Positions 2,763 to 38,811 of a DNA stretch of 64,000 nucleotides are shown here, one piece after another. The stretch covers positions 1,088,001-1,152,000 of the forward strand of contig CAWGXH010000004.1 in assembly GCA_963826525.1 (NCBI GenBank), in the 5' to 3' direction. The first letter of the stretch is position 1. Each line of letters begins with the position of its first letter. A program made the position numbers and the translations under genes. The DNA comes from an uncultured Methanomicrobiaceae archaeon (GTDB lineage: Archaea; Halobacteriota; Methanomicrobia; Methanomicrobiales; Methanoculleaceae). The notes beneath the pieces are model-generated. The model worked only from the letters and a program-made list of their open reading frames with translations, did no database searches and was not told the DNA's origin.

Positions 2763-2834
2763 GGGCTTGTAGATCAGGGGTAGATCGCTACGTTCGCAAC
2801 GTAGAGGCCGCGGGTTCAAATCCCGCCGAGTCCA
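2763..2834 (+). tRNA. tRNA-Ala (anticodon CGC)
   Basis: GGGCTTG acceptor with G3:U70 pair, D arm GATC...GATC, anticodon arm CTACG-TTCGCAA-CGTAG, T arm GCGGG-TTCAAAT-CCCGC, discriminator A. Confidence 0.95.
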
Positions 2835-3093
2835 TCGTCTTTCTCTTGAACCGTTCTTCGTGTGCACTTTGGCGACCGTAGGTCGCCGCGGGGTTTCGAA
2901 AGGGGCGGAGCCCCTTCGGTTCGCAAAAGAAGAGGCCGCGGGTTCAAATCCCGCCGAGTCCATCGTCTTTTTCTTGAACTCGTTCTTCGAATGTGCACTT
3001 TGGCGACCGCAGGTCGCCGTGGGGTTTCGAAAGGGGCGGAGCCCCTTCGGTTCGCAAAAGAAGAGGCCGCGGGTTCGAATCCCGCCGAGTCCA
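2835..3093 (+). repeat. Two tandem units (128 bp, 2835-2962; 131 bp, 2963-3093), each ending in the 3' half of tRNA-Ala
   Basis: Both end in AGAGGCCGCGGGTTC(A/G)AATCCCGCCGAGTCCA and contain hairpins GGCGACC-NNN-GGTCGCC and AAGGGGC-GGA-GCCCCTT. Confidence 0.93.
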
Positions 3094-3148
3094 TCTTATT
3101 TTCGTCTCCGCCGTTATCCGATGACGGGCTATTAAAAAAGAAGTTCGC

Positions 3149-19161: not shown

Positions 19162-19907
19162 TCGGCGAGATACCCCATCTCTTCGATACCGATCAGCCCT
19201 TTGAGCGCACGGGTGACGACCCAGCGCCCCGTCTCTTTTATCGCCGCCATGGCGTTGGTGCCGCCCACCATCGTGATGCCCAGGTACTCCGGACTGACCG
19301 GGACGCCGAGAAGCGGGACGTTCGGAGCGCCGACGTCGAGGATGCCGGAGAACCCGGTGGCGGTGAGTTCGTCGAGGACGGTCCCGACGAGGGGTTCGGC
19401 CTCCATGTGGCACTCCCGCATGTTCGCGAGGATGTTCCCGCTGCCGTGCTCCATGACGCCCAGGATGGAGGTGATGTCCTGGGAGATGAGCACCTCGAGC
19501 GGGTCGAGGGTCGTGTCCTTGTAGAGGAGCATGCTGATGAACCGGCGCGCCTCGTGCCGGTCGACCTCGACGACGCCGCCGCCGATGGGGTTGAGCGGCA
19601 CGCCGCGCTGGAGGAGCAGGGCGTCGAGGGTGATGCTGCACATGGTGCAGACGGCGTGGGCGTGATCGGGAATGGTGTAGTCCCCAATCTCTTCGCCGGG
19701 CTCTGCGATCCTGATCCGGTCGCTGACCATGAGGCCGGTCCTGTGGGCGTCTTTGAGCATCGCGAGCGCAAAGGAGAGGTCTTCCTCTTTGATGAGCGAG
19801 AGGTTGTAGATGATCTTCCCGGTGTTCTCTTCGGGGTTGTACGTCACCTGCAGGGCGTACTCCTCGATGCGGTGGTTGGTGAATTTCAGCGGTTCTTTCA
19901 TCGGCAC
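19155..19907 (-). CDS. NrpR-domain (DUF128) regulator lacking the HTH, NrpRII-like
   Basis: TMCSITLDALL..GVP..P.GGG, TTLDPLEVL, VGGTNAMAA. Confidence 0.85.
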   Translation of the reverse strand: MPMKEPLKFTNHRIEEYALQVTYNPEENTGKIIYNLSLIKEEDLSFALAMLKDAHRTGLMVSDRIRIAEPGEEIGDYTIPDHAHAVCTMCSITLDALLLQRGVPLNPIGGGVVEVDRHEARRFISMLLYKDTTLDPLEVLISQDITSILGVMEHGSGNILANMRECHMEAEPLVGTVLDELTATGFSGILDVGAPNVPLLGVPVSPEYLGITMVGGTNAMAAIKETGRWVVTRALKGLIGIEEMGYLADY

Positions 19908-19983
19908 GGCTCCTTCATCGCGCGGGGGCGGGGTTGAATTTCAGCGGTTCTTTCATCGGCACGGCTCCTTCATCGCGCGGGGG
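19880..19983. repeat. Direct repeat of 49 bp, period 55 bp, covering the start of the NrpR-like gene
   Basis: TGAATTTCAGCGGTTCTTTCATCGGCACGGCTCCTTCATCGCGCGGGGG at 19880-19928 and 19935-19983. Confidence 0.92.
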
Positions 19984-20372
19984 GAGGGGTCTTCCGGCGG
20001 GGAGGGTTGATACTTTACTTGTCGTTTCGGAGGGAAAAAGGGTCATTGTTCGGAGGTGGGTGGTGTTCGGGTGCGGGGATGGTTGGGGTGGTAAGGTGGC
20101 CTGCAGGGGTTTTGTTTCCTGTGTGCTGGCGATGCCCCCAGTTGGGTGAGGGGGAACCGCTCCTTTCCATCCTTAAATGAGGCAAATCTGTGAGTATTTT
20201 CCGGTTTTACTGCTGGCTTTAGAAAGTGAATTTCGGCGGTAAGGGGAAAGGGTTTGCGAAATGGAATTCTTGCATCACTGTATTAAAGCAAGGAAAAGCA
20301 TCCTCTAATTCCAAAAAGCAAAACCGATTGTTTAAGTTAAATCAGATAGGTACAACCTGATTGGCGACATCG

Positions 20373-22901
20373 ATGGATAATGATAATGAGACCTTTTTTG
20401 AGGTTGATTCAAAGCTTCTCTTTGAATTAGGGGAGTATCTTATACCCAATCGGGCAATTGCTCTGGCGGAGACTGTTAAGAATGCATACGATGCTGATGC
20501 TAGTAAGGTCACCATCACATTACAGAGCATAAAGAAACCTGGGGGAGTAATCGAAATACAGGATAATGGTGTTGGCATTAGTGAGTCGCTTTTTAAGTCA
20601 TCTTGGATGCGCATTGCATCTCTCCATTCTGAACGGAATCCGCTATCTGAAATGTATCTGAGAAGAAAGGCAGGGAAGAAGGGCATTGGCAGATTTGCAT
20701 GCCGAAAGATTGCAAAAAGGCTATACTTGGGACTCAGTTGCTGAAATTGAACCTGGATATAAAGAAAAACTCTCGGCAATTTTTGATTGGTCAAATTTCA
20801 TTCCAGGTTCGAGTGTCAGTCAGGTACCAGTCAGATATCGTATCACTACGGAGGACAGTAAGACGCCTACGGAACGAAACTGAGATTGGAAGAGACTACT
20901 GAATCTTGGAACAGCAAAAACATTTTACGATTGCGAAACGAACTGAATGAACTCTATACTCCAATTATATACAAAACCGAAGAATCCCGGAATGATTCCG
21001 CAAATCGAAGCGATCCTGGATTTAATTATGTGATTTGTAGTGACGAATTTTCGATTGAACCCGATACAATAAATAATTCCTTTTTTAAACTTGCATGGGC
21101 GAAATTAACAGGATCTGTCGATAAGAATGGCTATGCAACCTATAAACTCGCCGTTCAAAATAAAATCGTAAATTCCTTTGAAAAGTCTTTCAGTCGAGAG
21201 GTGGCCTTTGAAGATCTAATCTGTGCAGAACTAGAGATATACATTTTTTCTTATCGTGCAGATTTATTTTATAATTCTGACTGGAAGTATGCCTCAGATA
21301 ATGGAGATTGCGAAAGATCGGGGAGGTATTCGAGTATATGCTGATAATTTTAGAGTCTTTGGTTATGGGGAAGCAGGAAATGACTGGCTATGCCTGAATC
21401 ATGATAGAGCGAGATCAAAGGCGGATGTTGCCCAAGAACTATTTGTATATAAAGCAGAGGCAACTAGGCCTGGTTTGGCTCTTTTTACCAATGGCAGCTC
21501 TGTTTGGATACGTTACATATTTGCAAGATGAAAATCCCCTTTTGGAAATATTGATTAATCGCGATCGGTTTGATCCTCGTTCTCAGTCATTTAAAAATCT
21601 TTAGAAAATTTGTGAGATTAGGTATAGACTTTGCAACGATCTTATACGCAAATGAAATTGAAATTGAAAAAGAGAAAAAGAGGGCGCTGAACGAGGAAAA
21701 GATTAAAAAAGAAAATGAATCTAGGAGAAAGGCCGAAGATGAGGCACGGGTTGCTGAAGAAGGGGCACGGATTGCCGAAGAGGAGCTGAAAGAAGCAGAA
21801 AAAGCAGAAAGAGAAGCAACCGCTGCTCGAATCAATCCTGAGAAGAAGCGACGCCAACTCGAAGCAGAAAGGCGACTAATTGAGATTTTTAGGAGGAAAG
21901 CAGATGCTGAAAATCATCTGCGGGGGCAAAGCAAAACTTTGCGTAAGGTTGAGGAGGAACAGAAAAAAGAAGAAGAACTGATTAGAGCAGAAAATGAGGC
22001 AAGACAGACTGGAAGAGCGGAAGTGGGCAGAAGAGTTAACGGTCAAAAAATTATCTGAAGAAAAAAGAACGCAAGCAATTAATAAATTATTCTCTTCACT
22101 TCAAGAGATTAAGAGCAATGAAGAACAGATAATAAGTTTAAAGCAAGCAGAACTGGATAGGCAGGCAGAGCAATACCGTGAAGAATTCTCCAGATTAAGA
22201 GTGTTAGCCTCAACAGGCACAATGATAAATGTATTCATTCATGAAATTCAGGCATTAATTGGCGATATGCAAATGATGCAGAGCCACTTCACTGCTCTCT
22301 CTGGATACGCTCCCGCCGATGAAAGAGAATTTTACGAAAAAGATTTAGTGATTTTCGATGATCGAATTGACATGATCAACCAGTTCGGACTGTTTAGGCC
22401 TTACATTAGGTCAAGAAAGCAAGCGCCTGAAATGAAAATGTGGGTCATAAAGCCTGTTGTCGAGCAGGTAGTTTCACCATTTAAATGGCAATTAAGGGAT
22501 AGGGGCATTGAGTGGACAAACTCGATTCCTGAGACATTAAGGACGCCACATATGTTCCATTCAGAACTGGTGTCCATTTTCCAAAACCTACTATCTAATT
22601 CGATAAAAGCAGTTTCAGGGACTCCTGATCGGCGGATTGCAATAGTCGGGGCAGATACAGGAGATAACCTCGTGATCAAATTCCTGGATTCTGGAAAGGG
22701 TATAGATAAAGAGCGATGGAAGGAAGTGTTTAAGCCATTTGTGGAGTCGACTCAGAGCCAGATGCTTTTCAGGGTTCGGGAACTGGTTTGGGCTTGAAAT
22801 TAGTCCGGGATTTTGTTCAGGCGTATGAGGGGAGGGTGCGAGTTATTGATCCTCCGGAGAATTGGAAAACTTGTATTGAGATCTCCTTACCTCTGGTGTA
22901 A
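20373..22901 (+). CDS. MORC/MutL-type GHKL ATPase - coiled coil - histidine kinase fusion (several frameshifts)
   Basis: ALAETVKNAYDADA, DNGVG, GKKGIGRFA; GGIRVYADNFRVFGYG..NDWL; E/K/R/A-rich coil; LASTG...FIHEIQ H-box; QNLLSNSIKA, FLDSGKGI, VFKPF, GTGLGL; ends CIEISLPLV*. Confidence 0.82.
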
Positions 22902-22903
22902 AC

Positions 22904-24028
22904 ATGCATTTGAAAGTTTTGTACCATTGACGATGATAAACGTGATCTGGAGCGATGTTCACGAATTATTGAAATGAGGGGATCAAAAGATTGTCAGTTT
23001 GAGTTTGACCTCCGCGTATCCTCTTCTCTTGCCGGACAATGGGATTGTTTTGCGGATGAGACGTATGATCTGATAATTGCAGATTTTGACTTCTCAAAAG
23101 TTGATGAAGATAACAAAGTATTAGGCATGAACGGTATTGCCTTGTCAAATCTGTTAAGGCAACACTTATTCTGAATGTCCGATTGTTCTTATGACCCGGC
23201 CAGATGTCTTTGATTTCGACACCTACCGGAACTCGGGTATTCAGGATGCAGAACTGCATCCTTAGATGAACCATCTATAAAAATGATTTATTACCATCTG
23301 CCGGTAAGACTGTAAGTCTGCTGGTCGAGCTTAGTTCAAGGGTATGAAACGCTACGGTCGTGTGAACCTAGGAACTGGGATGCTTTGTATGATGTTTTGG
23401 GTGCTCCCGATAGTTCTCACGATGATTTGAAATTATCCTATCCCACAGACCAGTTAATGAAAGGGGCTACATGGGCCGTCTTCACCACTGCAAAATGGAT
23501 TAGGAACGTTCTGATGAAGTATCCTGGCATCCTCTATGATGAAATTCATGCGGCCACGTTCCTTGGGATTCAGTTGATTCATTCCAGGGGGGTCATGTTC
23601 AGGAATTCTTGAGGCCAGCAAGATATTCAGGAGTCTTTTCACAGGAAAAGATGCTTTGGTGGAAATCTAGACTTACTGACCTGGCAACAGCTGATATGAT
23701 TGAAGATGAGGCGTTTTTGTCTTTGCGAAAAGGCTTCCCCATGTATTGGAACAGAACGAGAAACGCGAGCTTAAGCCCTGCCCTCTGTAATTCAAGTAGT
23801 AATACTCCCGCGGACTATGTTTGCTGCATTTGTAACGAGCCCGTGATGATTAAATACTCAATGCGGTATTATCCCGACAATCGACCTTCTGTAATGGATG
23901 AGGCACGAGTCTCATTTAAAGCCATACAAACATCAAATGATGTTAGATTTTCGCTCTTCGATTCATTGGGGCTGGAAATAATCAAGGAGAAATGTCTGAA
24001 TAGAAGGTTGTTTGAAAGGGAGCAATGA
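22904..24028 (+). CDS. Response-regulator receiver protein with uncharacterised Cys-containing C-terminal domain (several frameshifts)
   Basis: MHLKVLY-IDDDKRD, YDLIIADFDF, NGIALSNLLR, CPIVLMT; later YPGILYDEIHAATFLG, LWWKSRL, ALC...YVCCICNEP. Confidence 0.75.
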
Positions 24029-24036
24029 CCACACTA

Positions 24037-24777
24037 TGACTCAAATCGCGGATTACAATGATGGGTTACAGTATTTGTTCGCTTACGAAGAGAGCCGAAA
24101 ATATATAGATGACGAGTCATTAATTAACCTGCCTTGGTGCTGTGCAAATAAGGATCGGAATACAGGCACAATGACCTGGAAAATGAAAATTTCTGAAGAA
24201 AATCCATTTAAAGTTAAAATTAAGGGGCATCAGGCCATTACAGAAATCGAGATCTCCCTTTACATCGAGGCAGAAGAGGCCGAATATCTGAAAATACGTC
24301 GGTTCAATGTTCAACTTAAACTCTGGTCGGACAAGGTTGATCATTGGTATCGCCCAGAGTTTGATTCTACACAGATTCCTCAGAAAGTGACAGACCGCGG
24401 ACTGCAAAAAAGAGTGATGTTAAGATTTCATTATGATATCAGAAAGAAGAAAGTGTTCTCACCAGAACCATATTTTCATTTCCATGTGGGTGGAAGGCAA
24501 TCTCTAGATGAAAACTGTTGGATTCCTAGGGCTATAAAAGAGCCTAGAATTCCATCCCCTCCTCTGGACATTGTTTTACTACTGGAGTATATCTTTGTCA
24601 ATTACTATAGCAAAGAGACCGAACAACTACGAAGTACACCTAAGTAGGTTAGGATGCGTACGCCGGAGCCAAGACTTGTTCCAGAAACGGTACTTCCTGA
24701 AGTGTATGCAGTTCCTTGAAGATACTGAAAATACGCTGCTCGAGAACTCACTACATTATAAGTTAAAGCGCAATTAG
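24037..24777 (+). CDS. Hypothetical protein, DUF2290-like C-terminal motifs (frameshift near 24640)
   Basis: LRFHYD...PEPYFHFHVGG...EPRIPSPPLDIVLLLEYIFVNYY; closely follows the REC gene. Confidence 0.55.
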
Positions 24778-26343
24778 TCACGAGTTACGAGTAATTAGAG
24801 TTCTGTATAAATATTTACCAAAGAGACTAATTTTTTGATCAAGCACATCGCCATACCACGTACCATTTTGTATTGCAAAATCTCCAATCTGCTCGATCAA
24901 ATCAAGATTTGGCAGTGGCAACTTTCTAATGTCCGTGACATTCACCTGCGTATTCCCACTTATCATTCGATAATATCTGTCAATTACTGATGAGTTAAGC
25001 AATGCAGTAATTCCGAGGATTATATTAGTCTCAATGTCACCCTCGATTCCATAAATATAGTTCAGGTGGTTTTCAAACCCAAGGTGAGTGTATTCTGAAA
25101 AGTTTTCTTTAAATAAGGGTGATGCAGTGATCCTTTTACTCTGACACTTTGATGAAAACCTTTTGATGAGTATATAGTCGTTGTTTGGGACTAAAAGTGA
25201 TTCAGTCCTAATAATTTTAAGAATTGCCTGTCGTTTTCTATAGTTTTCGATAGGCCAGCTCACTCCGGTCAGACCGCAGTGTTTCATCCATAATAACGGC
25301 ACCCATTCTTTTGATGATGAGTTATCGACTAAATACTCTGCCACTCTAAAATCCACTACTTTTCCTGTAGAAACACCCATTCCAAAATCTTTTAGATCGT
25401 TTTCCCACGAATCTACAACTTCAAGAATATTGAGATCATCTGGTGAATTTGGGATTCTTATGTAGGAATGTGCGTTTTGCGTCACTATAACGTCTTTAGG
25501 TTGCGCGTACAATGTCTTGATATCAGAGAATCGGCTATCTAACGAGCTGGTCACTAGAATCTTGCCTTGGCTATTATTTTTAGTTCCATTAAAAATTATT
25601 ACTTCTTGTTCTACCTTATCGTCACTAAACACCTTTGTGCGTGACTTAAAGATATGGATTGCTTTTAGGGATGAGTTATGAATGAACCACTCCCTGACTT
25701 TTTTATAATACAAACCTGAGCAAAAACTTCTGGGAGTGATAAAAACAAATTCTCCGCCGTTCTTTAGCATGCTCGCTGATAATACCATGAATAGTGAGTA
25801 AATGTTAGGCTGTCCCTCAACGAAGGTCTCCAATAGACGAGAATACCTAGATGTTGCTTTAAGTTTGTAATAGGGTGGATTTGCTATTACTATGCTATAA
25901 CGGTCATGTTCTTCAAGAGGCCATAATGCATCCGACTGTACGTAATGTGAATTGTTGAGAATAAAGTCCATGTTTCTAACAGTGATAGTAGCATCATGCC
26001 CTAATTGTATAAGTTTTGTCTCAAAATCGTGAGTGGTACTTTTCAAGTATGGGGTAAGTTTTTCATCAATTTCCCAGGCGTCGATGGTGATGCTGATCGG
26101 GTCTTGAATTTCATTGGCAATTCTATTGCAGAGAGCGGCAAGTAATACTCCTGTGCCCGCTCCAGGGTCTAATATCTTTAATTGCTCTTTATTGATGTCG
26201 ACCAAACTGGCCATGTGCGTTGCAATGCTAACAGGTGTGAAAAACTGGCCACAACGTTTGCGGTTGACGTTACTGTTTGTATTTGTATATTCACTTGCAT
26301 AGTGGTAGGAGTTATCAAGGATCTTCTGCGCTGTTTGCTCCAT
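24778..26343 (-). CDS. Type II N6-adenine DNA methyltransferase, Eco57I-domain, BsuBI/PstI-like
   Basis: GQFFTP, ILDPGAGTG, IANPPYYK, PNIYSLF, ITPRSFCSGLYY, STGKVVDFR, FENHLNY, SGNTQVN. Confidence 0.92.
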   Translation of the reverse strand: MEQTAQKILDNSYHYASEYTNTNSNVNRKRCGQFFTPVSIATHMASLVDINKEQLKILDPGAGTGVLLAALCNRIANEIQDPISITIDAWEIDEKLTPYLKSTTHDFETKLIQLGHDATITVRNMDFILNNSHYVQSDALWPLEEHDRYSIVIANPPYYKLKATSRYSRLLETFVEGQPNIYSLFMVLSASMLKNGGEFVFITPRSFCSGLYYKKVREWFIHNSSLKAIHIFKSRTKVFSDDKVEQEVIIFNGTKNNSQGKILVTSSLDSRFSDIKTLYAQPKDVIVTQNAHSYIRIPNSPDDLNILEVVDSWENDLKDFGMGVSTGKVVDFRVAEYLVDNSSSKEWVPLLWMKHCGLTGVSWPIENYRKRQAILKIIRTESLLVPNNDYILIKRFSSKCQSKRITASPLFKENFSEYTHLGFENHLNYIYGIEGDIETNIILGITALLNSSVIDRYYRMISGNTQVNVTDIRKLPLPNLDLIEQIGDFAIQNGTWYGDVLDQKISLFGKYLYRTLITRNS

Positions 26344-26648
26344 AAAATACCACTATCTCTTCCTAGTGTCGCTCAAAATTCAGTATAACTTATTAATCTG
26401 CCATTTCCGCAGATTTGATCATCTTAAATATGGGCAACGGTATCACTTAAAGATTTGCTTCTGATTTTTGGAAAATCTTCTCTTATTTGACAGCTCCTTG
26501 AACTTTAGTGTGATCGGTTTCTCTGAATACTAAACTCCTATGACCCACGATTGAAGCATTGGATAGTCACCTGCAGGTACCCATCTGTCCCAATGGAGGA
26601 TTGCGGCGGGGAGGAGAAATGGGTTTGATGCTCCACAAGGGATGATAT

Positions 26649-27237
26649 CTACTTTTTTGAAGATTTTCCTGATATTTCCTTCAACGTGCCCTTAATTTCA
26701 GAAAGTTCTTCAAATATCTCATTAAACTCCTTCTGTGAATCACTTATATGGAGTGAGGCGTAAAACATCGCCGTGCTCAGGCCGATTGATACGAAATACG
26801 CATCCAATTGTGAAAACTGGTGAGTCGACGTAACTGCGGAGGCCTATTTGGTCTATAGCTAGCATCTCTAATATTTTTGATGATAACGGTTTTACTAAAA
26901 GGCATCCGCCAATAATTGCTAGAATTGTACTAATGACGCAGAATACTAAAATTAGCCTTTGAGCCTTCTTTTGACTTTTAAGTCTTTTCGTAGTTTTCAG
27001 TGTATCTGGACTACCTTTTGAGGACTCAACCAATTTCGGTGTAATTTTGCTGTAAATTATTATAAGAAAGAGGCCTGTTGCAATCATGAGCAAGACGCTA
27101 AAAATCAACTGAAAGCCGAGAATGTTGTCTTTGGTCATTTCAAAAGCAATTATTTCAGATAGCGCAACAGCGAGGAAATAAACCACTGCAAGAATTGCGA
27201 TTTCCCCAATCTCCGAGGCGCCCTCGTCCCGTCCCAT
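26649..27237 (-). CDS. Hypothetical membrane protein (probably frameshifted; C-terminus ...KEFNEIFEELSEIKGTLKEISGKSSKK*)
   Basis: Three to four hydrophobic segments in ORF 26740..27237; plausible continuation in another frame to the stop at 26649. Confidence 0.5.
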
Positions 27238-27313
27238 TGAATAGAGTTCTTCTTCAAATGCTGAAAACCCTTTCCAAGCGTTTTTTGAAACCTGGAATAG
27301 ATTTACCTAAATA

Positions 27314-27461
27314 ATGCCTCCCCCTCCTACAGCAGCCTCCCCTACCTCTTCGCCGGCTGTGCCCTGGTCGGGCTGCTCGTCATCTCCTCGGCGCATACGT
27401 GCTCAGCCCCGGGGAGGCGAACCCGCCCCTCTCCTTCGCCCCTCCGGCGAGATACGTCGGG
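27314..27461 (+). repeat. Left copy of ~150-bp diverged direct repeat (signal-peptide gene fragment)
   Basis: Aligns with 30051-30197; shared core CCCTGGTCGGGCTGCTCGTCATCTC. Confidence 0.85.
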
Positions 27462-27523
27462 AACGTTTTCCCTCTCATCGTGGAAAACTGACTGTAAAAT
27501 GCATATCGCCCTGATACCCGCCC

Positions 27524-28634
27524 TCACCCCCGTTCCCTCCGTGCTTCCAGCGCCTCGATCTCTTCGAGCGTCCTCGCCTCACCCACCCGGTCGCCGACCT
27601 CCCGTGCGACCGCGAGGCTTTCATGGTAGCAGTCCAGCGCCTCGCCGTACCGGTCCGTCTCCGCATACACCTTCCCGATGCTGCGGAGGAGAGCCGCTTC
27701 GGCAGGTCGATCTCCCAGATCCCGGTAGATCCGGCGGCTTCGCGTGTACGACGCCAGCGCGGCATCGTAGTCTTCCAGGCGGAGAGTACGCGTCCCCCAG
27801 GGAACAGAGTGCGCCCGCTTCCCCCTGCCGGTCGCCGGCCTGCGAATACTTCTCAAGACTCTGTGCTATCAGCTCGAGCGCCCTGGCGTACCGGAAGGTC
27901 GATAAGTAATATTTTCCTTTTTCGAGCAGCATCTTGGCTTCGCCGCTCGTATCCTTGATCTTTTCGGCGAGCTCGACCTGATCTCGTATCTGCGATGTGA
28001 AAGAATCGATGACTTTCACGATGAGGTCATAATGTGTCCCCTTCAGACGATGGGATACCGCAGATTGAGTTTTGCCGATCTTTTCTGCGATCTCCTTTTG
28101 CGTGAGCCCTTCCAACGTCAGCATCACGGTTTCTGCTTGTCTCTTTGTATATCCATTGATAGTGTTATCCACGGCAGCGCAAAAAATCGGCAAAAAAGCA
28201 TTCGACTTCTTCCCAGGGCGTTTTTACAGTCAGGTTTTGCCCGGCCTTTTTCATCTGATCCAGTTCGAGACCCGAAAGGCTGAAACGCCTCTCCGTCGCC
28301 CTCGCCGGCCGAACCGTCTTTCGGCAGGTAATTGACGGTTCCGATCCCAACCGCAATTCTTGCATCCAGCCGGGTTTTGGTATTATCGGGATCAAGCCCG
28401 GAGATGAGCTTGAGGCGTAAGAGGATGGCATCCTTCAATGCAGTCTTCAGGCTTTGAAGAAACTCCCTGAAAACTGTCCCCACGGAATATCGAAAACGGC
28501 ACGGCGTACTCTTTTCCGATCTCTGCCAACGTATTCTTCAAGTGGCGGATACATTCTTCACCGCATGCTTTTTTGATCTCTCTGGATTGGATTACATCGC
28601 CGGTGAGAACAGCATACATTTTTCTTCCCGTCAT
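27524..28634 (-). CDS. SatD-family palm domain - HTH - TPR fusion (about four frameshifts)
   Basis: YAVLTGDVIQSRE, FRGDSFQG, DARIAVGIG, GDGEAF..SG..LD; LTQKEIAEKIGKTQSAVSHRL; TPRs GDRQGEAGALCSLGDAY, GDRPAEAALLRSIGKVY, GDRVGEARTL. Confidence 0.78.
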
Positions 28635-28676
28635 GACATCATTGCCTTCTTCAAAGGTTCCTTTCTTGCGATAAGA

Positions 28677-28839
28677 TATGAATGTATTTATTCATGTTTT
28701 GAGAATATTAATATTATAGTTCATAGTATGGAAGTATGAGTAATTTTAATCATAAGAATGGGATATGAATAAATTTGTTCATATCTGTAATATATGTGTG
28801 TCTTAGTTCATATTTTTAGATTATGAGGGAATATTCATA
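28677..28839. promoter_or_regulatory. Array of six palindromes TATGA-N10-TCATA with exact 29-bp period
   Basis: Copies start at 28677, 28706, 28735, 28764, 28793, 28822; best copy GATATGAATAAATTTGTTCATATC; array begins 43 bp upstream of the SatD-HTH start. Confidence 0.85.
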
Positions 28840-28975
28840 CCTTTCAGATGAGGTTCTGTAGCGGCTCGTTCTTGCGGTAAAGATGGATACGGTTTCGTAT
28901 TATTTAGAGGCTGCGGATAGCATGCTCAAATTCAGCGATCTTCCGGTTAACAGATCGAAATCTGGATAGACCCCT

Positions 28976-29941
28976 CTAGAGCATTTGAAAGAATTCTGAT
29001 AGATATTGTATTATTTTCTCAATCCCCCCCAGATTGATTAGGTAATTGGATGTCGCTCCTATAAAAACGGCAATCGCGAAGCTTAACAGTGTTCCTAAAA
29101 TGATATATTCCGATCTCTTCGAATCGTTAATTCTGAAAAGTCCTTTTGCTGCTACAAGGAATCCAATTGCTGTGTAGTCGTTTACGAGGATAAAAATCAA
29201 TATCAGAATACGCTCTACATATCCGATCAAGCGGCCGGCGTTGTCTAAGCTGCCTTCTTGCGTAGTGTCCACATCTTTTCGCCAGAGCTGAGTGATTCTA
29301 TTGACGAGTATCCCGCTAGGCCAGAGAATCAGAAGGAATGCAATAATCGCAATCCATATTTTGATTATCTCAACTGGACTTCCAAAGGGATATGGGATTG
29401 GGATGTGTGGATAGAGCAGTACCAAAACGATGAGTAGAACAAACCCGTGGGCGATCTGGTCGATGAAAAATATATGGATGGGTTCATCTTCAATTTCTAC
29501 TTCATGCTCTCCCTGCTCTTCCTTATCCTCCTGATCTTTCTCATCGTCGTGATCGCCCTTACAATTTACTTTCTTTCGGAGGTTTGCCATCCAGTGGGAC
29601 TTCAACCCGTCTATGACGAAGTGCGATGCCGTGACGAGGATAAATGCGTATAGGAAGGTAATCCATAATTGCGGAAGGAACTCCGGAAGAGATGATGGAT
29701 GTTTTAAGATCAGTATGAAGTTCCAAAGGTTGGCAAAAAGAAACGTCAATACCCCGGCTACAATGGCATGACATATCAGGCACTTGGAGTGCCAACCATT
29801 ATTGAACCGGTTTTTAACCCAGGCATCTGGCTGGAAAACAAAATCGGTCAAGATATGGGCGAGAATTAGGCGAAGGAACAACTCGATGCCATAAGGTATT
29901 AACGTTTCAGTCAAGCAATTGTTATTCTGAACTCCCACCAC
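28976..29941 (-). CDS. DUF3307 family membrane protein (SatE-like)
   Basis: LAHILTDFVFQP, SHFVID, IDQIAH, NAGRLIGYVER, GFLVAAK...RSEYIILGTLLSF. Confidence 0.88.
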   Translation of the reverse strand: MVGVQNNNCLTETLIPYGIELFLRLILAHILTDFVFQPDAWVKNRFNNGWHSKCLICHAIVAGVLTFLFANLWNFILILKHPSSLPEFLPQLWITFLYAFILVTASHFVIDGLKSHWMANLRKKVNCKGDHDDEKDQEDKEEQGEHEVEIEDEPIHIFFIDQIAHGFVLLIVLVLLYPHIPIPYPFGSPVEIIKIWIAIIAFLLILWPSGILVNRITQLWRKDVDTTQEGSLDNAGRLIGYVERILILIFILVNDYTAIGFLVAAKGLFRINDSKRSEYIILGTLLSFAIAVFIGATSNYLINLGGIEKIIQYLSEFFQML

Positions 29942-30050
29942 ATTATTTATTCTATTCTTTCTAGGGAGGCTCCGCCCCGTTTGAGCGATAACCTCAATGG
30001 CAATCTGCTTTGAGAGAATCTATCAGTTCTGAGGAAAAAACCGTATTGTC

Positions 30051-30227
30051 ATGTCCCCCCTCTCCCGTAGCAGTCTCCCGCACCTGATCGCCGGCTGCAC
30101 CCTGGTCGGGCTGCTCGTCATCTCTTCGGTGTATGCCAGGAGCCCCGGAGAGGTGAGCCTGAACGTATCCTTCGACCCGCCCGGGGGATACATCGGGGAG
30201 GGCAGCCCGAAAATCCCGAACAAATAA
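30051..30227 (+). repeat. Right copy of direct repeat; reads as a 58-aa ORF with signal peptide (MSPLSRSSLPHLIAGCTLVGLLVISSVYA...)
   Basis: Manual translation; homologous to 27314-27461. Confidence 0.75.
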
Positions 30228-30645
30228 TGCGCGTCTCCCGCAAGCAATCCCCGACTCCCTCCCTCCCCGGGCAATCCCGCACGTCACCATCAAGTAACGT
30301 TCATATAGCCGCTCTTTTCACTTCTCCTCCGCTCCCCGAACCTTTTTAACCCCCATCTCCCCACGCTGAAACAAGCGATGCACGACAACGGCTCGCTCCT
30401 TCGGAGGGCGCCGGTGCACCGCGAACTACAGCAGCGAGGTAACGCATGAAACCGAAACCAGAATCCATACCCCGGGACACGATCAAAGCCCCCGGAAAGC
30501 ACCGGGGCACCCGCGTCCCGGCCGAATCGAAAAGAGAACAGAACAGAATCCGTGGCGGCAGCCAGGCACAACCACATGTTTCCAGCACCAGGATGCACCG
30601 GACCGCCACCGAGAGAAGCATCGCCACCCGGGGAGCGTGCCCGCG

Positions 30646-30819
30646 ATGAGTCACGGCGGGCAGACACCGCGGAAGGTGCCGCTCTACCTCATCGCCCAGG
30701 TGGTCGCGGCCGAGGTCGCCCGGCACAAACGGGCGCTCCGCGAGATCCACGTCACCTGCACGGCCGGGCACTACTACGCGGTCACCGTCCTTACCGCCGG
30801 AGGGGATACCCATGCCTGA
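30646..30819 (+). CDS. Small hypothetical protein of replication module
   Basis: MSHGGQTPRKVPLYLIAQVV...; overlaps the next ATG; host-like codon usage. Confidence 0.55.
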   Translation: MSHGGQTPRKVPLYLIAQVVAAEVARHKRALREIHVTCTAGHYYAVTVLTAGGDTHA

Positions 30820-31150
30820 GCCGGGAACGCTCGCCTACGGCAGCGGCGGCACCCTCCACATCGCGGTGGATGCCGAGCACTACCGGATCGAGCCTGAGGA
30901 TGTCAAACACCTGCTCTTCTCGGGCAGGGTGGTGCCGGTCGTGCAGGACCGCGTCATCCCGGACGGCGGCACGCCGATGGGCAGGACGACGATCGAGGGG
31001 CACGCGACGGTAAACTGCACCGGCAAAGCCGTGGCGCTCCACACCCGTGCGGGGTCGTTCATCATCCCGCTCGTCAGCGTCCAGCGGGTGGCACGGGGGG
31101 AGGCGGTCAGCGTTCCGCTCTTCCCCCTCGTCCCGGGGGTGACAGAGTGA
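30812..31150 (+). CDS. Hypothetical protein of replication module
   Basis: 112 aa, translationally coupled to the primase-like gene (GTGA overlap). Confidence 0.7.
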   Translation: MPEPGTLAYGSGGTLHIAVDAEHYRIEPEDVKHLLFSGRVVPVVQDRVIPDGGTPMGRTTIEGHATVNCTGKAVALHTRAGSFIIPLVSVQRVARGEAVSVPLFPLVPGVTE

Positions 31151-33934
31151 GCGACGCGATTATCGAGGCGGTGCAGGTCATCGCCCCGGAGGGCGTGGTG
31201 GAGGTGCGGGCGCTCGCCGAGAGTGCCGTTCACTCCGGCTACTTCGACGACCGCAGCGAACTCGCCGCACGGGCGGAGGTGCTCGACGCCGACCCGGAGG
31301 TCGGGGGGATCTACGTCACCCTCAACCCCGTGAACCCGGCGCTTCTCGCCCGGCGGGCGAACCGGATCAAGCTGCGCCTCGGTAAGAAAGACGCGACGAC
31401 GAGCCGATGCCGATATTACGAGAAGGCGGTGGCTGCCGGTCGACATCGACCCGGTGCGGCCAAGCGGCGTCTCGTCGACCGATGCGGAGCACGATCTCGC
31501 GCTCGCGACGGCGGATCGGATCGTCGCCTGGCTCAGCGAGCAGGGGTTCCCGGCGCCGGTGCGGGCCGACTCGGGGAACGGCGCCCACCTCCTCTACCGG
31601 GTCGACCTCCCGAACGACGAGGTAGCGACCGGGCTCGTGAAGGGCTGCCTCGCGACCCTCGACGTTCTCTTCTCGAACGAGAAAGTCACCGTCGATACCG
31701 CGAACCACAACGCCGCCCGGATCTGGAAACTCTACGGCACCGTCTCGAGGAAGGGCGACAACACGGCGGAGCGGCCGCACCGCCGGTCAAGGCTCCTCAC
31801 GGTTCCTGACGAGATTGGCCTTGTTCCCGTGGAGCGACTCGCCCATCTCGCCGGGCTGCTCCCGGCGGATGAGCCGCCAGCGCCGAAGAAGGGCGGGGGG
31901 ATCGACCTCGCCGCCTGGCTCCCCGATCACGGGATCGCCGTCCGGTCGGCGAAACCCTACCGGGGCGGCACGCTCTACACCCTCGAGGACTGCCCGTTCT
32001 CCTCTGCCCACAAGGACGGCGCGTTCGCCATCCAGTTTGCGAGCGGCGCGATCTTCGCCGGCTGCCACCACCAGAGCTGTGGCAGCGGCACGCAGCGCTG
32101 GCCGGAGCTTCGGGCACGCTACGAGCAGCGGGAGCCGAAGCGAAAGGAGGAGATATCCAATCCCCCTTCTCCCCCGGCCGAGTACCGCCAGCGGGCGATG
32201 GAGATTCTGGAGAATGGCGACCCGCTGGCATTCCTGCTCGACACCTTCACCAGAACCCACGTTGGCGATCGAATCGTCGCCGAATGCCTGATCATGTCGC
32301 TCGCCTCCCAGAGCATCGAGAACACGAGCGGGCTGCACGTCGCCATCTCCGGCAACTCCGGCAAGGGCAAAACGCATGCCTGCAACGCGATGCTCAACCT
32401 CGTCCCCGAAGAGTACCGGTTGAAGGGCACGGTCTCAAACAAAGCCCTGTTTTATCACGACTCGCTGAGATCGGGCACGGTGCTCCTCTTCGACGATGTC
32501 TCGCTCTCGGACGATCTGCAGGAACTTTTAAAGTCGGCGACCGCCAATTTCAGGGAGCCCATCGAACACCGGACGCTCACCGCCGACCGGCGGCTTCGGG
32601 TCTGCACCATTCCCGAGCGGTGCGTCTGGTGGCTCGCGAAGGTCGAGAGCGTCGGCGACGACCAGGTGATGAACCGGATGCTCACGGTCTGGATCGACGA
32701 CTCGAAGGAGCAGGACATCGCGGTCCTGGAGCATGTGAAAAAGGTCGAGGCGCGGTCACCGGATACATGCGGAGAAGACGTTGACGTGCTGGTCTGCCGG
32801 GCGCTGTGGGAGATTCTCAAGGGGCAGCAGTTCCATATCCACATCCCGTTTTCACCTCGCATCCACTTCTCGAACGCCGCAAACCGCAGGAACCCCGCGA
32901 TGCTCTTTGACCTTATCAAGTGTCACGCCCTGCTGCACTTCCGCCGGCGGGAGCGGGACGACCACGGGAGTCTTATCGCCACCCGGCAGGATTTTGCGTA
33001 TGCCCGGCAGCTCTTCATCGCCATCAACGGGGAAGTCGGCGGGCAGGAGACGAAGCAGACCCGCAACGAGGCTGCTGCCCTTGCGACCGTTGCGAAGATG
33101 GGCATTGCGGTCTTCACCATCAGGCAGCTGCAGGATACCCTCGGCCTCTCGTATCACCAGACCTACCGGCTCCTGCACGGCTACACCAACAGCAAGGCGA
33201 CCTATACCGGCATTCTGGACAAGTGCCCGGCGGTGAGTCTCATCGACGCGACGGTGGTGGAGGAACTGTACGGCCTTGAACTCAAGCGGCGGGAACAGTA
33301 CTTCTCATTCGATTACGAGATATACCGCCAGTGGTCGGCGAGGGCGGAGGTCTGGATTGCGGAAGAGGACGGTGCAACCGGGAACCGGGACGATCCCGGC
33401 TCTGACGTTTGCACCTTTGCACCCCGTTTGCACCCGAAAATTGGAAAAAGTGCAAATCAGAAAAACGTCGTTTCCAGGGTTTATTCTTGCAATGAAGTAC
33501 AGTACAAAGAAACATGTACAGGTACTCCTGTAATTGTGCACCCATCCGGGGAACCACAGAACCTACCCGACGATGCGGGTAGTGGGTGCAGCGATGGCTG
33601 TGAATCCCGGATGAGTGCAAACGTCGATGATATTCGGGCGCCACAACCGTCTTTTCCGTATAAAACGCCTGAGCGCCGAGTGTCCGATTGCACGCCCGGG
33701 TGCAAAGGTGTGCAAACGGGTGCAAACGTGCAATCGAAGACCGGGAAAGTCCTGCCCCTGCCCGGTCTGCTCGACCATCGCACGTTCGAGCGGGCACGCG
33801 TGGATCTCGGCCGGTGCACGATCTGCGACACCGCAAAAGCGGTCTATCACTCACGCGAGGCGCGGGCGAGTATCTGCCAGGGGTGCTATGCACGGCTTGT
33901 GCGGGAGTGGAACCGGGAGGAGGGGGTGCGGTGA
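31147..33934 (+). CDS. Primase-like / P-loop ATPase replication protein with C-terminal Zn finger (frameshift near 31405)
   Basis: IYVTLNP, WLPVDIDP (DxD), DSGNGAHLLY, CPFS..H...CHHQSC, Walker A ISGNSGKGKT, LLFDD, C-terminal CTIC...CQGC. Confidence 0.75.
33407..33734. repeat. Inverted clusters of TTTGCACC / GTGCAAA iteron-like repeats inside the rep gene
   Basis: TTTGCACC at 33408, 33416, 33427; GTGCAAA at 33700, 33710, 33720 plus GTGCAAT at 33728; extra GTGCAAA at 33450 and 33615; AT-rich tract between. Confidence 0.75.
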
Positions 33935-33999
33935 TCCCCTTCGCCCCTTCTGCAGGATCCGGTCTGTTAAGTACCTGCGCCGCACCATATCTGGTACTT

Positions 34000-34251
34000 A
34001 TGAATGCACAACTGGTATTCATCGTACTACCTCTTGTCATTCTGGCGATAATCGCACTGCTTGTCGTATTTGTCAGCAAGCGTGGAAAGGGGAAAAACCT
34101 TTCAAAATTGGCCATTCTGGCATTTGTGCTCATTATTTCCGGAATCGTCTTTGGCGATGACAGGTTAATCGGCTATGGTTTGATCGGTGCCGGTATTCTT
34201 CTTGCGGTCATCGATATCATCGTAAAACTCAGAGAGCAAGAGGAGCAATAA
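34000..34251 (+). CDS. Small three-TM membrane protein
   Basis: MNAQLVFIVLPLVILAII...LSKLAILAFVLIISGIVFGDDRLIGYGLIGAGILLAVIDII. Confidence 0.75.
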   Translation: MNAQLVFIVLPLVILAIIALLVVFVSKRGKGKNLSKLAILAFVLIISGIVFGDDRLIGYGLIGAGILLAVIDIIVKLREQEEQ

Positions 34252-34450
34252 CCAGCAGGTACGGACGGGATCTTCTGTCTGGAAGGAAAAGGTCACGAAC
34301 ACCGGTGCTGCGAGTCGATACGGGAAAATATCTGAAGAGCGGTATGAACCGCTATCCATGCGGGATGTGAGCCTACCCTAACCCCGGCACCGCCACGATC
34401 CCGCCGGCAAGCCCGCTGCTCACGTTCCCCGGTCTGCTCCTTCATCTCCG

Positions 34451-34559
34451 GATGACCTCTCGCTCACCGACGCGATGGGCCTCGCCCGGCACGTCCTCGG
34501 CATGCCGGGCTATGAGGTTCTGCACGGAGCACCCAATCCCTTTTTCCCATCCACACGAA
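34451..34559 (+). pseudogene. Remnant of the 3' end and terminator region of a dockerin-tailed surface-protein gene
   Basis: Encodes LSLTDAMGLARHVLGMPGYEVLH, matching FSMQDAAYLARHLLGLPGYEILH* at the end of 35699..37730; both followed by CAATCC(C)TTTTTCCCATCCRCACGAA. Confidence 0.75.
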
Positions 34560-34693
34560 TGCCGGTGGGTGCCCATACTGTCCATGTCCTGCGAGGAATC
34601 GAGCTGATTTTGAACCTTCGCCTGTTTTCCCGGCGAAAGGATAAGCAGATATTTTAATACCTGCCCGGTCCGATTCTGGATAGGCTGATCACC

Positions 34694-35578
34694 ATGGATA
34701 CGAAGTATTTCACCGTACACGACGGCAGAACTCTTGCATACAGCGAATTCGGAGATCCTGACGGGGTACCTGTTTTTCACGCGCATGGCGGCCCGGGTTC
34801 GAGACTTGAAGGTAAAATTTTTGATAAAACTGCGGAAGAACGGGGATACCGGTTTATTGTAACCGACAGACCCGGCATGGGGGAGTCTACGTATCTGGAG
34901 GGACGAAGGCTCCTTGACTATCCGAACGACATCTCAGAACTTGCCGATGCCCTGAATATCGATACGTTCGGCGTTACCGGCTGGTCGGGGGGAGGTGCGC
35001 ATACAACGGTCTGTGCCTATGCGATCCCGGAGAGACTGCTCTTCAATATGAGCTTCGCAGGCTACACCAACTTTGCAGAGATGCCCGGTGCGGAGAAGTA
35101 CCTTAAGTCCAGGATGGACCAGACATCCGTCGCCCTTTCCAAAACCCATCCGCGCATGTTCAGGTTCTTCTTTGATCTGATGCAGGTGAGTGAGCGGCTG
35201 ATGCCGGACGCCTACTATAAGGCACTCATAAAGGAGCTCTGCGACGCCGATAAGGAGATTGCCGCTGATCCACACTTCAAAGAGGTATTCATGGAGGAGG
35301 AAGGCGAGGCATTCCGGCAGGGAAGCCGGGGGGTGACGACCGATGCCGCGGTTCACTACGTGGACTGGGGGTTCAGCCTCGCGGAGATATCCTGCAAGAT
35401 CCACGTATTCCACGGCACTGAAGACTTCATGGTCCCGATCGAGTATGCACGCAATATCGCCGAACACGTGCCGCGGTGCGAGCTTCACGTGCTGGAGGGG
35501 GAAGGACACCTGTTCCCCTTTAAGTACCAGGATCTCATCTTCGATACGGCCGACAGGGAGATCGGACGGGTTTCCTGA
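34694..35578 (+). CDS. Alpha/beta hydrolase
   Basis: HGGPGSR, DRPGMGES, GWSGGG nucleophile elbow, HGTED, GEGH. Confidence 0.92.
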   Translation: MDTKYFTVHDGRTLAYSEFGDPDGVPVFHAHGGPGSRLEGKIFDKTAEERGYRFIVTDRPGMGESTYLEGRRLLDYPNDISELADALNIDTFGVTGWSGGGAHTTVCAYAIPERLLFNMSFAGYTNFAEMPGAEKYLKSRMDQTSVALSKTHPRMFRFFFDLMQVSERLMPDAYYKALIKELCDADKEIAADPHFKEVFMEEEGEAFRQGSRGVTTDAAVHYVDWGFSLAEISCKIHVFHGTEDFMVPIEYARNIAEHVPRCELHVLEGEGHLFPFKYQDLIFDTADREIGRVS

Positions 35579-35698
35579 GCGTAAACCCGCCTGAACCGGA
35601 ATTCGGGTGACACTATGCGGCAGTTCCTTCAAAAGCCTTCGGGGATCGAATGGAATGCCGCAGTACGCTTTTAAAGAAGAGCACCGATATCCTTACCT

Positions 35699-37730
35699 AT
35701 GACCATTTGCCGACGCCGCACTCTCCGCACGCTGACCCTCTGCCTGCTCCTGCTCGTCATCGTCGAAGGGGGAGCGGCGCTGACCATCGAGTCGAGCAAG
35801 GGGAGCGTCGTCCACGGCAACAATTTCGTCGTGACCATTGCCGGCGGGCCGGACACGACCTACTCCCTCTACGTCAACGACGCCGGTCTCGCGAGCGGGG
35901 AACAGTATCCCCTGATCGCGCCCGGTCAGTCCGGTGTCGTCACCGGCACCGGCGTCCCGGCCGACGAGGCTCTCGACTTCCCGTATACGCGGGCGAACCT
36001 GACCACCACCGCTGCCGGAACCCGCACGGTGCAGTTCAACACCTCCCATGCCACCGAGCCACGGAGCTTCACGATCACGGTCGTCGACCTGGCCGATACC
36101 GCCGTATTCGACACGGTCACGGTAGCGGTGACGCGGGGAGCGGTCACTCTGACCGCATCCGGCACCGGCGTCTACTACGTCGGCGAGGAGATCACGATCG
36201 GCGGCGCCAACACCGACAACACGACCACCTTCCTCTTCCTCACCGGCCGTGACCTCCCGGCCAACGGCGCCGGGCTCAACGACATCACCACGCCCGTCGT
36301 CGACGGCGAGGGCGGCACCTTCGTCAAAGTCGATGTCGAGAGCGACCAGACCTGGGAGTACGTCTGGGATACCGCAAGCGTGAGTAAAGCCCTGAAGTCC
36401 GGCACCTATACCATCTACGGCCTCTCCGCCCCGCGGGACAAGGCTCACATCTCCTCTGCAGCGTACGCCACCTCCTCCATCGTCCTCAAGGCTCCCATCG
36501 TCACGGCAACCCCGGGCTCGAACGCCGTTGCCAGGGGCGACAATCTGACGATCTCCGGATATGCGGAGTTCCAGCAGAAAAACGTCTATGTCTGGATCTT
36601 CAGCGACGGCTGCTGGGTCCTCGGCGATCCGGTCGGTGTGACGTGGATGGATGGTTATGCATACGTGCTCGCAGGTGCGGAGACGCTGAAGTTCTCCTCC
36701 GAAGAGTGCTACATCATAGTCCAGAACCCCGGCGGGGACGGGCTGCAGGACGTCTCCGGGATCAACGCTACCTGGATCCGCGACGCCGGGGGCAACGAGG
36801 TCGATCTCGGCATCCGGACGCTCCCGGACGCCGCAAACACCCTCGTGAACGCGCTTAACGCGCCCGAGGCCGACGACACCTATACTCGGCTGACCCTGCC
36901 CGTTGAGGAGCCCTGGATTGCGATCGACGCCGTCGGCGACCGGGGCGTCGGCAGCACCTTCACGCTCTCCGGCACCACGAACCTCGTCGCCGGTGACGTA
37001 CTGTCGGTGAACGTGACGGATGCGTCTTCCGCGCCGGTCTTCCGCGGGCAGGCCGTTGTGAAATACGAGGTACGCAAAGCCGAACAATTCCTGGTCGGCC
37101 AGACTCGATACCACCGGTCTTGCGGAGGGCGAATATACCGTCACGGTCGACTATCCGGCTACGGGAACCGGTCAGACGACCACGTTCTCCCTCGTCCCGC
37201 CCGGCCTCGTCGTGAACGCTCCGGCAGCGAACCCTGCGGTTATTGTTCAGAACACCGACGGGACCCACATGTGGGGTGAGACCGCCGTGCTCTCGGTGAC
37301 GGCGACCGGGGCGGGCATCGCGTCGGTGACGGTGAATCTCTCAAGCATCGGCGGCTCCGCGGCGACGCCGATGACCGACGCCGGGGACGATACCTGGACG
37401 GCGACCGTCTCGAGCGCTGTCCCCTCGCCGTTCGAGGACGGCGCCTACCGGCCGGTGCTCCTCGCTGTGAACGTGACCGGTGTAGACGGCGTCAGCGACA
37501 CCTCGGTCTCCATCCCGCTCACGGTCGTGAAGAACGGGGATGCGAACCTGGATAACCGGGTCACGCTCTACGACGCCGTCTACATCGCCCGGCACTCCCT
37601 CTATATCGGGGGCTACCCGATGACGGAGAGCGTCGGAATGGTCTGCGGAAATTACTACTTTTCGATGCAGGATGCGGCCTACCTCGCCCGGCATCTCCTC
37701 GGACTTCCCGGCTACGAAATCCTGCACTGA
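35699..37730 (+). CDS. Secreted S-layer-like Ig-repeat protein with C-terminal dockerin-like domain (frameshift near 37070)
   Basis: Signal peptide; YYVGEEITIGG.NT, TFLFLTG..LP.NG, GTYTIY, SGTTNL; NGDANLDNRVTLYDAVYIARH. Confidence 0.78.
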
Positions 37731-37847
37731 ACCACAATCCTTTTTCCCATCCGCACGAACCCCGCCGCATCTCCCTGCCGTGAGATCGCTCACCCGCCGG
37801 AGACGCATGGAAAAATAGTTCTACCATATAACGACAATGTACGGTAG

Positions 37848-38811
37848 ATGGAAAACGGGATGCGGGATAAGGCGCGGAGCGTTCTGAAACAGATCCTCAC
37901 GGCGGCGGCATACGACGTGGAGGATGTGAGCGATCCGCTGGACCTCTCGGCCATCGGAGACGAGGACGTTTTAATCGTGCTCTGCTCCGACGACCCGGAT
38001 CAGATAGACGAGTTCGACCGGACGACCTACAACCTCGGCGTCGATGGGGAGAACCTCGTCTGCAGAAAACTTCTCTTCACGCTCGACGAGACCGTGCAGG
38101 CGGGGAACTGTATCCGCTGGGGCTCCGACGAGTTTGCGAAGTACGCCGGAGAAGCGGCACGGGCGCACCTCCTCGGTCGAAGGCTCGCGCTCGACCTTGC
38201 GGCACCCGAACCGGCACAACCGAAGCGGGCGGAAACGGCGAAGGCCGCCCCGGAAGACGACGGACTCACGGGACCCGACCTGCTGCACCTTCCGATGCAG
38301 GTCAACGAGAAACGGGCGATCGGGATCGCCGGCGTGCAGGGCACGGTCAAATGCAAATTCATACCCCACTGGTACTACCGGTATGCGAGCACCGGCGAGC
38401 GGACGGTTAAGGATAGGCTGGTCTCGTTCGAGTCCGAGGGTGCGGGCGTCATCAACGGGATCAACGGCATACGGTCGGAGACGGATATGCGCGAGGCGGC
38501 CGTCTCGCCTGTACCCTTCGGTTCCGAGGTGCTCCAGCCCCGGATCCAGAAGAGTGACGCCGAAGAGCAGCTCGAAGCGGGAGATCGTCGAAAACCTGAC
38601 CCAGCGGGTGCGGTTCCGGCAGGAGAAGGGCGACGCCATCTTCTACGAGGAGAAGACCCTGAAGCCCGACAAAAGCAACGTAACCGTCGATATGCTGCTC
38701 GTGTACGTCCCGGTCTGGCAGGTCCGGGGCGGGAGCAGGATCGTTGAGGTCAACGCCTTCAACGGGGAGATCCTCGCTATGCCCATGGACGAGGGCGTCG
38801 AGTTACTCTGA
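37848..38811 (+). CDS. Hypothetical protein (frameshift near 38572)
   Basis: ORFs 37848..38747 and 38044..38811 join; LVYVPVWQV...VEVNAFNGE. Confidence 0.7.

Follow-up and report, generated by a model that had tools for sequence, protein, structure and literature searches.

In hipBA operons, neighboring operators build higher-order complexes. The E. coli hipBA locus carries four TATCC-N8-GGATA operators that are bound cooperatively by the Xre-type HTH protein HipB (PMC3376134). The likeness to the locus considered here extends to several phased palindromes lying on a promoter (a probable one in our case) directly before the binder's own operon, to a possibly Xre-like HTH and to a half-site that starts with TAT, while the O1-O2 period of hipBA is 28 bp (our own count from a printed oligonucleotide) versus 29 bp here. 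Unlike in hipBA, SatD joins its HTH to a cyclase-fold domain (and here to TPRs), the partner is a DUF3307 membrane protein rather than a HipA kinase, and the repeated unit is 20 bp with a 10-nt center, is associated with an archaeal promoter and is known here from sequence alone. The HipA family was absent from the 18 frames scanned around the array, and membership in HipBA was rejected since no HipA kinase lies beside SatD.

SatD takes its name from the sat operon of Streptococcus mutans. The pairing of SatD (PF16264) with DUF3307 (PF11750) is one of the nearest relatives of our locus, which holds the same two families and the same phased array as most close homologues. In the window (the whole 64,000-nt stretch of DNA that was analyzed), the order is DUF3307, array, satD, as in Methanoculleus loci, rather than the usual satD followed by DUF3307; satD has a TPR tail; and there are five to six units where most arrays have three. 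Relative to the Methanoculleus copies, the partner here keeps the His/Asp motifs that are lost there. A literature search that covered subscription journals thinly, with the original S. mutans sat papers outside its scope, found no publication on a SatD operator or SatD activity, and the retrieved portions of two papers only repeat the acid-tolerance label (PMC10326533, PMC5786311). As an operator array it would be a known kind of element, in an unstudied two-gene family. New here are the archaeal upstream-partner variant with its TPR tail, the comparison of gene arrangements, the negative outcome for co-variation, the analysis of the frameshifts and the link to essentiality; the family can now be approached through a named candidate binding site, a likely promoter and loci that differ naturally in gene order or in how far the partner has decayed.

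OptE, the effector of the Panoptes system, is a 2TM-beta-barrel protein. As in Panoptes, where OptS, with its tetramer, restrains OptE (PMC12657218), a small palm-fold protein with two aspartates in catalytic positions is encoded beside a membrane protein, and the genomic asymmetry of the two genes resembles that of an antitoxin and its toxin. Unlike OptS, SatD carries an HTH and is preceded by a proposed operator array, and the architecture of the partner differs. No OptS structure appeared among the listed fold hits of SatD, and membership in Panoptes was rejected, the DUF3307 model being all-helical rather than a 2TM-beta-barrel effector. Class III adenylyl/guanylyl cyclases, GGDEF proteins and PycC share the SatD fold, with many families tied within 1–2 Z units; since substrate-specifying and transition-state residues were checked at profile position 104 only, catalysis is putative.

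The palindrome array before satD

The array lies within a 341-bp gap, with the DUF3307 gene (upstream) and satD (downstream) on either side, both on the minus strand, so that DUF3307 adjoins satD and the cassette is present here. All six palindromes occur exactly where the original prediction placed them. The features of the locus are:

28677..28696, no strand: palindrome 1, 20 bp, nearest the start codon, ending 42 bp before the satD ATG
28706..28725, no strand: palindrome 2, 20 bp, one mismatch
28735..28754, no strand: palindrome 3, 20 bp, perfect arms
28764..28783, no strand: palindrome 4, 20 bp, perfect arms, self-complementary at 18 of 20 positions
28793..28812, no strand: palindrome 5, 20 bp, one mismatch
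28822..28839, no strand: palindrome 6, most distal, 18 bp, perfect arms, 8-nt center
28645..28652, minus strand: probable satD ribosome-binding site, purine-rich and alike across the clade, of putative function
28976..29941, minus strand: DUF3307 gene, intact, encoding a multi-helix membrane protein (PF11750, 68.9 bits)
27524..28634, minus strand: satD, with a cyclase-fold domain, HTH and TPR tail, and four +1 offsets in the assembly
28041..28115, minus strand: SatD HTH, the proposed binder, with recognition helix TQSAVSHRL (PF01381 HTH_3, 25.6 bits, cut-off 23)

Units 1–5 follow TATGA-N10-TCATA with zero or one mismatch each and a period of exactly 29 bp, so the exact phasing predicted for all six holds for five; in unit 6 the left half is in phase but the right arm, beyond the 8-nt center, is 2 nt off. 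Unit 5 is self-complementary at just 8 of its 20 positions. Among the five full units, pairwise identity is 88% in the arms, 54% in the centers and 34% in the linkers. This gradient argues that the array is no recent tandem duplication, in agreement with the prediction that half-sites and period are kept while centers and linkers have diverged, and the array is absent from the Tandem Repeats Finder list. CRISPR arrays have near-identical repeats and unique spacers of about 25–45 nt; the centers here are only 54% alike and the linkers are 9 nt, too short for such spacers, as had been noted.

A motif-free score that allowed all periods, gaps and half-sites gave the array 47 out of 50, while the best shuffled sequences reached 39 (300 dinucleotide shuffles of the 190-bp core) and 38 (100 shuffles of the 341-bp intergenic region). 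DNA of the same composition therefore does not often produce such phasing, the outcome that would have counted against the original prediction, and the array is confirmed to be beyond chance. The 3.06-Mb genome holds 36 sites with at most one mismatch, of which five are in the array, including both perfect ones; since the array is unique in the genome, the motif does not mark a host regulon. A sigma-70 promoter scan stayed at chance level, this model being unsuited to an archaeon.

The downstream gene was correctly described as encoding a SatD domain and an HTH, but it also encodes the TPR tail and is split by four frameshifts, each a single-base +1 offset (near 28442, 28279, 28203 and 27770) relative to an intact homologue of 428 aa, P0003. 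Against P0003 there is no stop in 368 matched codons, and the N-terminal part is identical at 174 of 200 residues. P0003 scores 29.7 bits with PF16264 (cut-off 29) and the first fragment in the window alone 20.3 bits, and by this homology the window gene can be assigned to the SatD family. The assembly (G000) is rich in indels: 24 of 114 conserved genes change frame relative to genome G110, with 17 of 27 switches being +1, and apparent frameshifts, mostly +1, occur about once in every 4.5 kb of conserved coding DNA, so split genes of this genome need careful reading. Four breaks in 1.1 kb nonetheless compare with about 0.25 expected from the genome-wide rate (Poisson about 1e-4; our own arithmetic). 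In run X1, which reaches one of the four breaks and no part of the array, one depth-2 contig matches 28281–28417 with two differences, and 13 loose letters of it fit only without the extra base near 28280 (one record, weak). Errors of assembly are, in our judgment, the better explanation of the four frameshifts, with a recent pseudogene holding a smaller but substantial share of the probability; it is therefore possible that this satD copy is a pseudogene and that its array is a remnant.

Homologous loci and the proposed operator

The array was compared across 82 distinct satD loci, two of which were dropped for short upstream DNA, by scanning 280 bp upstream for three-unit arrays. The best upstream period was 29 in 41 of the 80 loci and 28 in seven more, tallies that overstate independence since many of the loci are close relatives, with about 13 from the Methanoculleus clade and about 20 from one other methanogen genus. 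Among the 48 loci with matches of at least 150 bits, 34 had a best period of 29. In the controls, 29 was the best period in 4 of 73 upstream regions from contig C3 of the window's genome and in 5 of 73 other upstream regions from the same loci. Significant arrays with a period of 28 or 29 preceded 33 of 80 satD genes versus 1/73 and 0/73 in these controls; 41 of the 80 upstream regions were without a significant three-unit array, some with two units and others with none visible. By this comparison, the phased array is best regarded as a layout of the satD family and not as a local oddity. Three units are present in 28 of 46 arrays and five in three, including the window. As a separate matter, the upstream arrays of two loci (L003 and L004) were amplified by recent tandem duplication (of 18-bp repeats in L003 and longer ones in L004), with the 29-bp phase partly broken.

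The array sits directly 5' of satD in all four gene arrangements: significant arrays were found in 30 of 57 loci with the partner downstream, in 9/9 with it upstream, in 3/3 divergent loci and in 6 of 14 with the partner undetected (one with a spurious motif). In six Methanoculleus loci, searched from −2500 to +1500 of satD, all sites fell 62–149 bp before the satD start, and neither these loci nor the window had an array-type site before DUF3307. Across 13 clade members the units align without gaps, and center identity is 0.70 in unit 1 versus 0.54 and 0.53 in units 2 and 3. Archaeal TATA boxes have a characteristic spacing. Together with this spacing and the purine-rich leader, the better-kept center of unit 1 suggests that the promoter lies under that unit. 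The recurring period, the position 5' of satD in every arrangement and the conserved center of unit 1 favor the operator function offered in the original prediction.

In an unrooted quick tree, the divergent loci come first in the nesting, followed by P0003 and then by the Methanoculleus group (supports 99, 95 and 95), which would fit a history in which the partner was first divergent, then upstream, and then decayed and was lost. We infer that the window genome belongs to the family that holds the Methanoculleus-like satD carriers. When metagenomes were scanned with P0003, most matches were to the TPRs, 3 of 25 had a SatD match, and P0003's own contig was absent; viral scans gave one locus each, and phage records had no match.

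While the period of 28 or 29 bp recurs in methanogens, haloarchaea and bacteria (28 in some bacterial loci), the half-site differs by lineage. TATGAGT or TATGAAT pairs with the helix QSAVS[YH]R, TATAAGT with QS[TS][IV]SQS, TACAACC with QQAVS (haloarchaea), GTTCGCC with KSTVSES and ATTAATT with IPAVNVH. That the spacing stays exact between groups as distant as methanogens and Gammaproteobacteria, even though the half-site drifts, implies that the protein–protein geometry along the DNA is conserved. It also suggests that the binder travels with the cassette, and since the only HTH detected in the cassette is that of SatD, SatD is the proposed binder. The check suggested for satD homologues, phased upstream arrays that co-vary with the recognition helix, was borne out for the arrays but not for co-variation beyond ancestry, although a pattern can be seen by eye: the partial correlation was 0.16, below the 0.22 of the median 8-residue window, and the three trait pairs yielded 2, 1 and 0 independent helix–site pairs (quick cyclase-domain tree, 68 of 116 rows, i.e., those with significant arrays, including a few spurious or out-of-phase motifs in L068, L027, L105 and L010). 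The case for SatD binding therefore comes from position and linkage rather than co-evolution.

We consider it likely that the array is an autoregulatory operator, on whose phased palindromes SatD dimers assemble cooperatively and so shut down the promoter of their own gene. A SatD dimer, probably joined through its cyclase-fold domain, would set two HTHs on one 20-bp palindrome, and the 29-bp period (2.76 helical turns) would allow adjacent dimers to touch and so to load cooperatively. With the proximal site over the probable promoter, SatD would repress its own transcription and keep its own level steady. In loci with the order satD-DUF3307 or with divergent genes, SatD would repress the partner too; here, DUF3307 lies upstream without a site before its own start, so the array would control satD alone.

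SatD, DUF3307 and a possible guard role

Clustered at 50% identity, the SatD family falls into about 2,900 groups (profile matches at E 0.001; HTH-only matches possibly included). The model of a close SatD homologue (P0005, pLDDT 93) matches the palms of GGDEF proteins, class III cyclases, PycC and Cas10/Cmr2, with many ties (Z 9–11.7, rmsd 2.5–4.4 over 108–165 residues). Profile searches matched 3mr7 (E 3.5e-5) and Ma1120 (E 0.004) with the two aspartates aligned, and these metal-binding aspartates are invariant in 68 SatD sequences. SatD is therefore predicted to adopt a nucleotide-cyclase fold in which both metal-binding aspartates are retained; catalysis and product are putative. The HTH scores above the PF01381 cut-off in the window fragment and below it in P0003 and P0005; HipB chains match the SatD profile only at E 0.3–0.5, and there is a weak HTH_ParB match below the cut-off.

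DUF3307 has an N-terminal part with the His/Asp motifs and a C-terminal GxxIGxxER part, and many archaeal loci have the C-terminal part alone. The window protein retains all His/Asp motifs; in nine of nine Methanoculleus-type upstream partners (L065, L067, L069-L072, L077, L080 and L086), they are lost while GxxIGxxER is kept. The DUF3307 model is all-helical, with no Foldseek match at E 0.001, a best Z of 8.8 among helical bundles and only DUF3307 clusters in the Atlas. A complex prediction of two SatD chains (P0003 as stand-in) with the window DUF3307 scored 0.00 in a run whose controls did not fold either, and it carries no weight here.

The operator could be part of something larger, a possibility that we regard as real but rather doubtful. 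An antitoxin-like SatD, acting as synthase or sensor, might keep DUF3307 harmless, with the loading of the array setting both its level and its oligomeric and catalytic state, and loss of SatD or of its product might unleash the partner, as in Panoptes. The cyclase/GGDEF palm fold with its invariant aspartates is consistent with this guard reading, as is the asymmetry of the two genes: satD adjoins DUF3307 in 58 of 61 partner-first loci (the three exceptions being two weak partial matches and one contig edge; 30 of 37 haloarchaeal matches were fetched), and 15 of 82 satD loci are without a detected partner (two of the 15 at contig edges). Plasmid records with DUF3307 had a satD-like gene in 18 of 18 cases, one at just 32 bits. 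The cassette is also the only cargo of a 3.77-kb plasmid, lies beside Pycsar and TIR genes in another plasmid and, in the window, beside a methylase and a restriction-type ATPase. The small plasmid is pEC34A (L121; 3,770 bp), which apart from the satD-like and DUF3307 genes carries just rop, mobA and one small frame; five Klebsiella records contain a plasmid of equal length with the same match.

A further argument for a guard comes from S. pyogenes Tn-seq: of all accessory genes, only one, annotated satD and found in 178 of 249 genomes, ranks in the top quarter of essentiality. The label derives from eggNOG annotation and had no match in the study's supplements searched (PMC11323703, from the retrieved part of the article). 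That part contains no discussion by its authors of satD as a toxin-antitoxin gene. To us, being both accessory and essential is what one would expect of an antitoxin, or of a repressor that silences a harmful gene, and simple derepression of a membrane protein would explain the essentiality equally well. Moreover, PADLOC has no model for SatD-only proteins or DUF3307, DUF3307 is all-helical, unlike the OptE effector, and several satD neighborhoods have no defense gene. In the nine Methanoculleus loci the upstream partner has decayed while satD and its array are intact, so the array persists even where the partner is not intact; and if the frameshifts in the window are real, the cell tolerates an intact partner in the absence of SatD.

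In its fullest form, which we hold to be improbable, SatD/DUF3307 would be an undescribed addiction or anti-phage guard of bacteria and archaea: a cyclase-fold antitoxin would polymerize on the 28/29-bp array, the array would set expression and a dimer-of-dimers catalytic state, and the nucleotide product would shut the His/Asp membrane protein, such that displacement of SatD or drain of its product would fire the partner. Were this so, it would account for a published oddity, the accessory yet essential satD of S. pyogenes, and would add a nucleotide-guard system with DNA-templated control.

Other readings of the array and the genomic setting

Instead of SatD, a host regulator might bind the sites. 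SatD as the binder rests on inference, and co-variation specific to its helix did not emerge beyond ancestry; yet the motif is not genome-wide, and the same period recurs in methanogens, haloarchaea and bacteria despite differing half-sites, which makes a host regulator very unlikely. A structured RNA, i.e., a leader or small RNA of repeated hairpins, is more improbable still: the plus strand folds with a z-score of −3.7 and the sense strand with one of −2.1, but every palindrome array folds, the arms hold one sequence rather than pairing alone, the mismatches break pairs (as in the poorly self-complementary unit 5), and a period that holds exactly in different domains of life fits DNA geometry. 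Least credible is a centromere- or iteron-like site that would serve a mobile element in partition or replication, close to the scaffold floated in the original prediction: the regular phasing, the sub-cut-off HTH_ParB match and a position in a variable region beside a multi-copy module with a large unannotated frame speak for it, but ParA, ParB and Rep are absent among the 18 frames of 20361–38744 (several without a family match, so a remote member is possible), the array accompanies satD into unrelated chromosomal sites, and most arrays have three units, so the scaffold finds no support and, with no such gene adjacent, a parS or iteron array was rejected.

The operator model thus stands as the preferred reading of an array whose cassette occupies a variable region at positions 19,933–37,791, where the flanks are 89% identical to genome G110 and the interior is largely unmatched; the cassette DNA had no match in two other genomes of the genus. 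Here, the region contains a type II methylase and a fragmented HATPase gene whose N-terminus is restriction-enzyme-like; in G110, the same slot is taken by a Dam-type methylase, along with a below-cut-off match to a QatA-like NTPase. The cassette therefore sits in a slot with defense-type cargo, surroundings that Methanoculleus satD loci do not obviously share.

Several smaller features accompany this region. An 80-nt direct repeat (27317–27396 and 30055–30134, 81% alike and 2,738 bp apart) flanks the DUF3307-array-satD cassette and may mark its boundary; related copies occur once more in the window's genome and in G110. At 30290–33270 lies a module with one large frame, intact at 1,130 aa in G110 and split here, that recurs in at least five places in the window's genome and in several in G110 and G166 at 73–89% identity. 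It had no Pfam or NCBIfam match and one weak PHROG match of unknown function, and it looks like a multi-copy mobile element beside variable cargo. The HATPase/restriction-enzyme-like gene is a single gene spread over about five frames (20361–22797), adjoined by two frames without a family match (23609–24647) and the type II methylase (24778–26343, minus strand). The left edge of the variable region coincides exactly with a 55-bp tandem duplication (19880–19988). Elsewhere in the window, 2763–3110 holds two tRNA-Ala(CGC) calls and a 131-bp tandem repeat with three copies of the tRNA 3' half.
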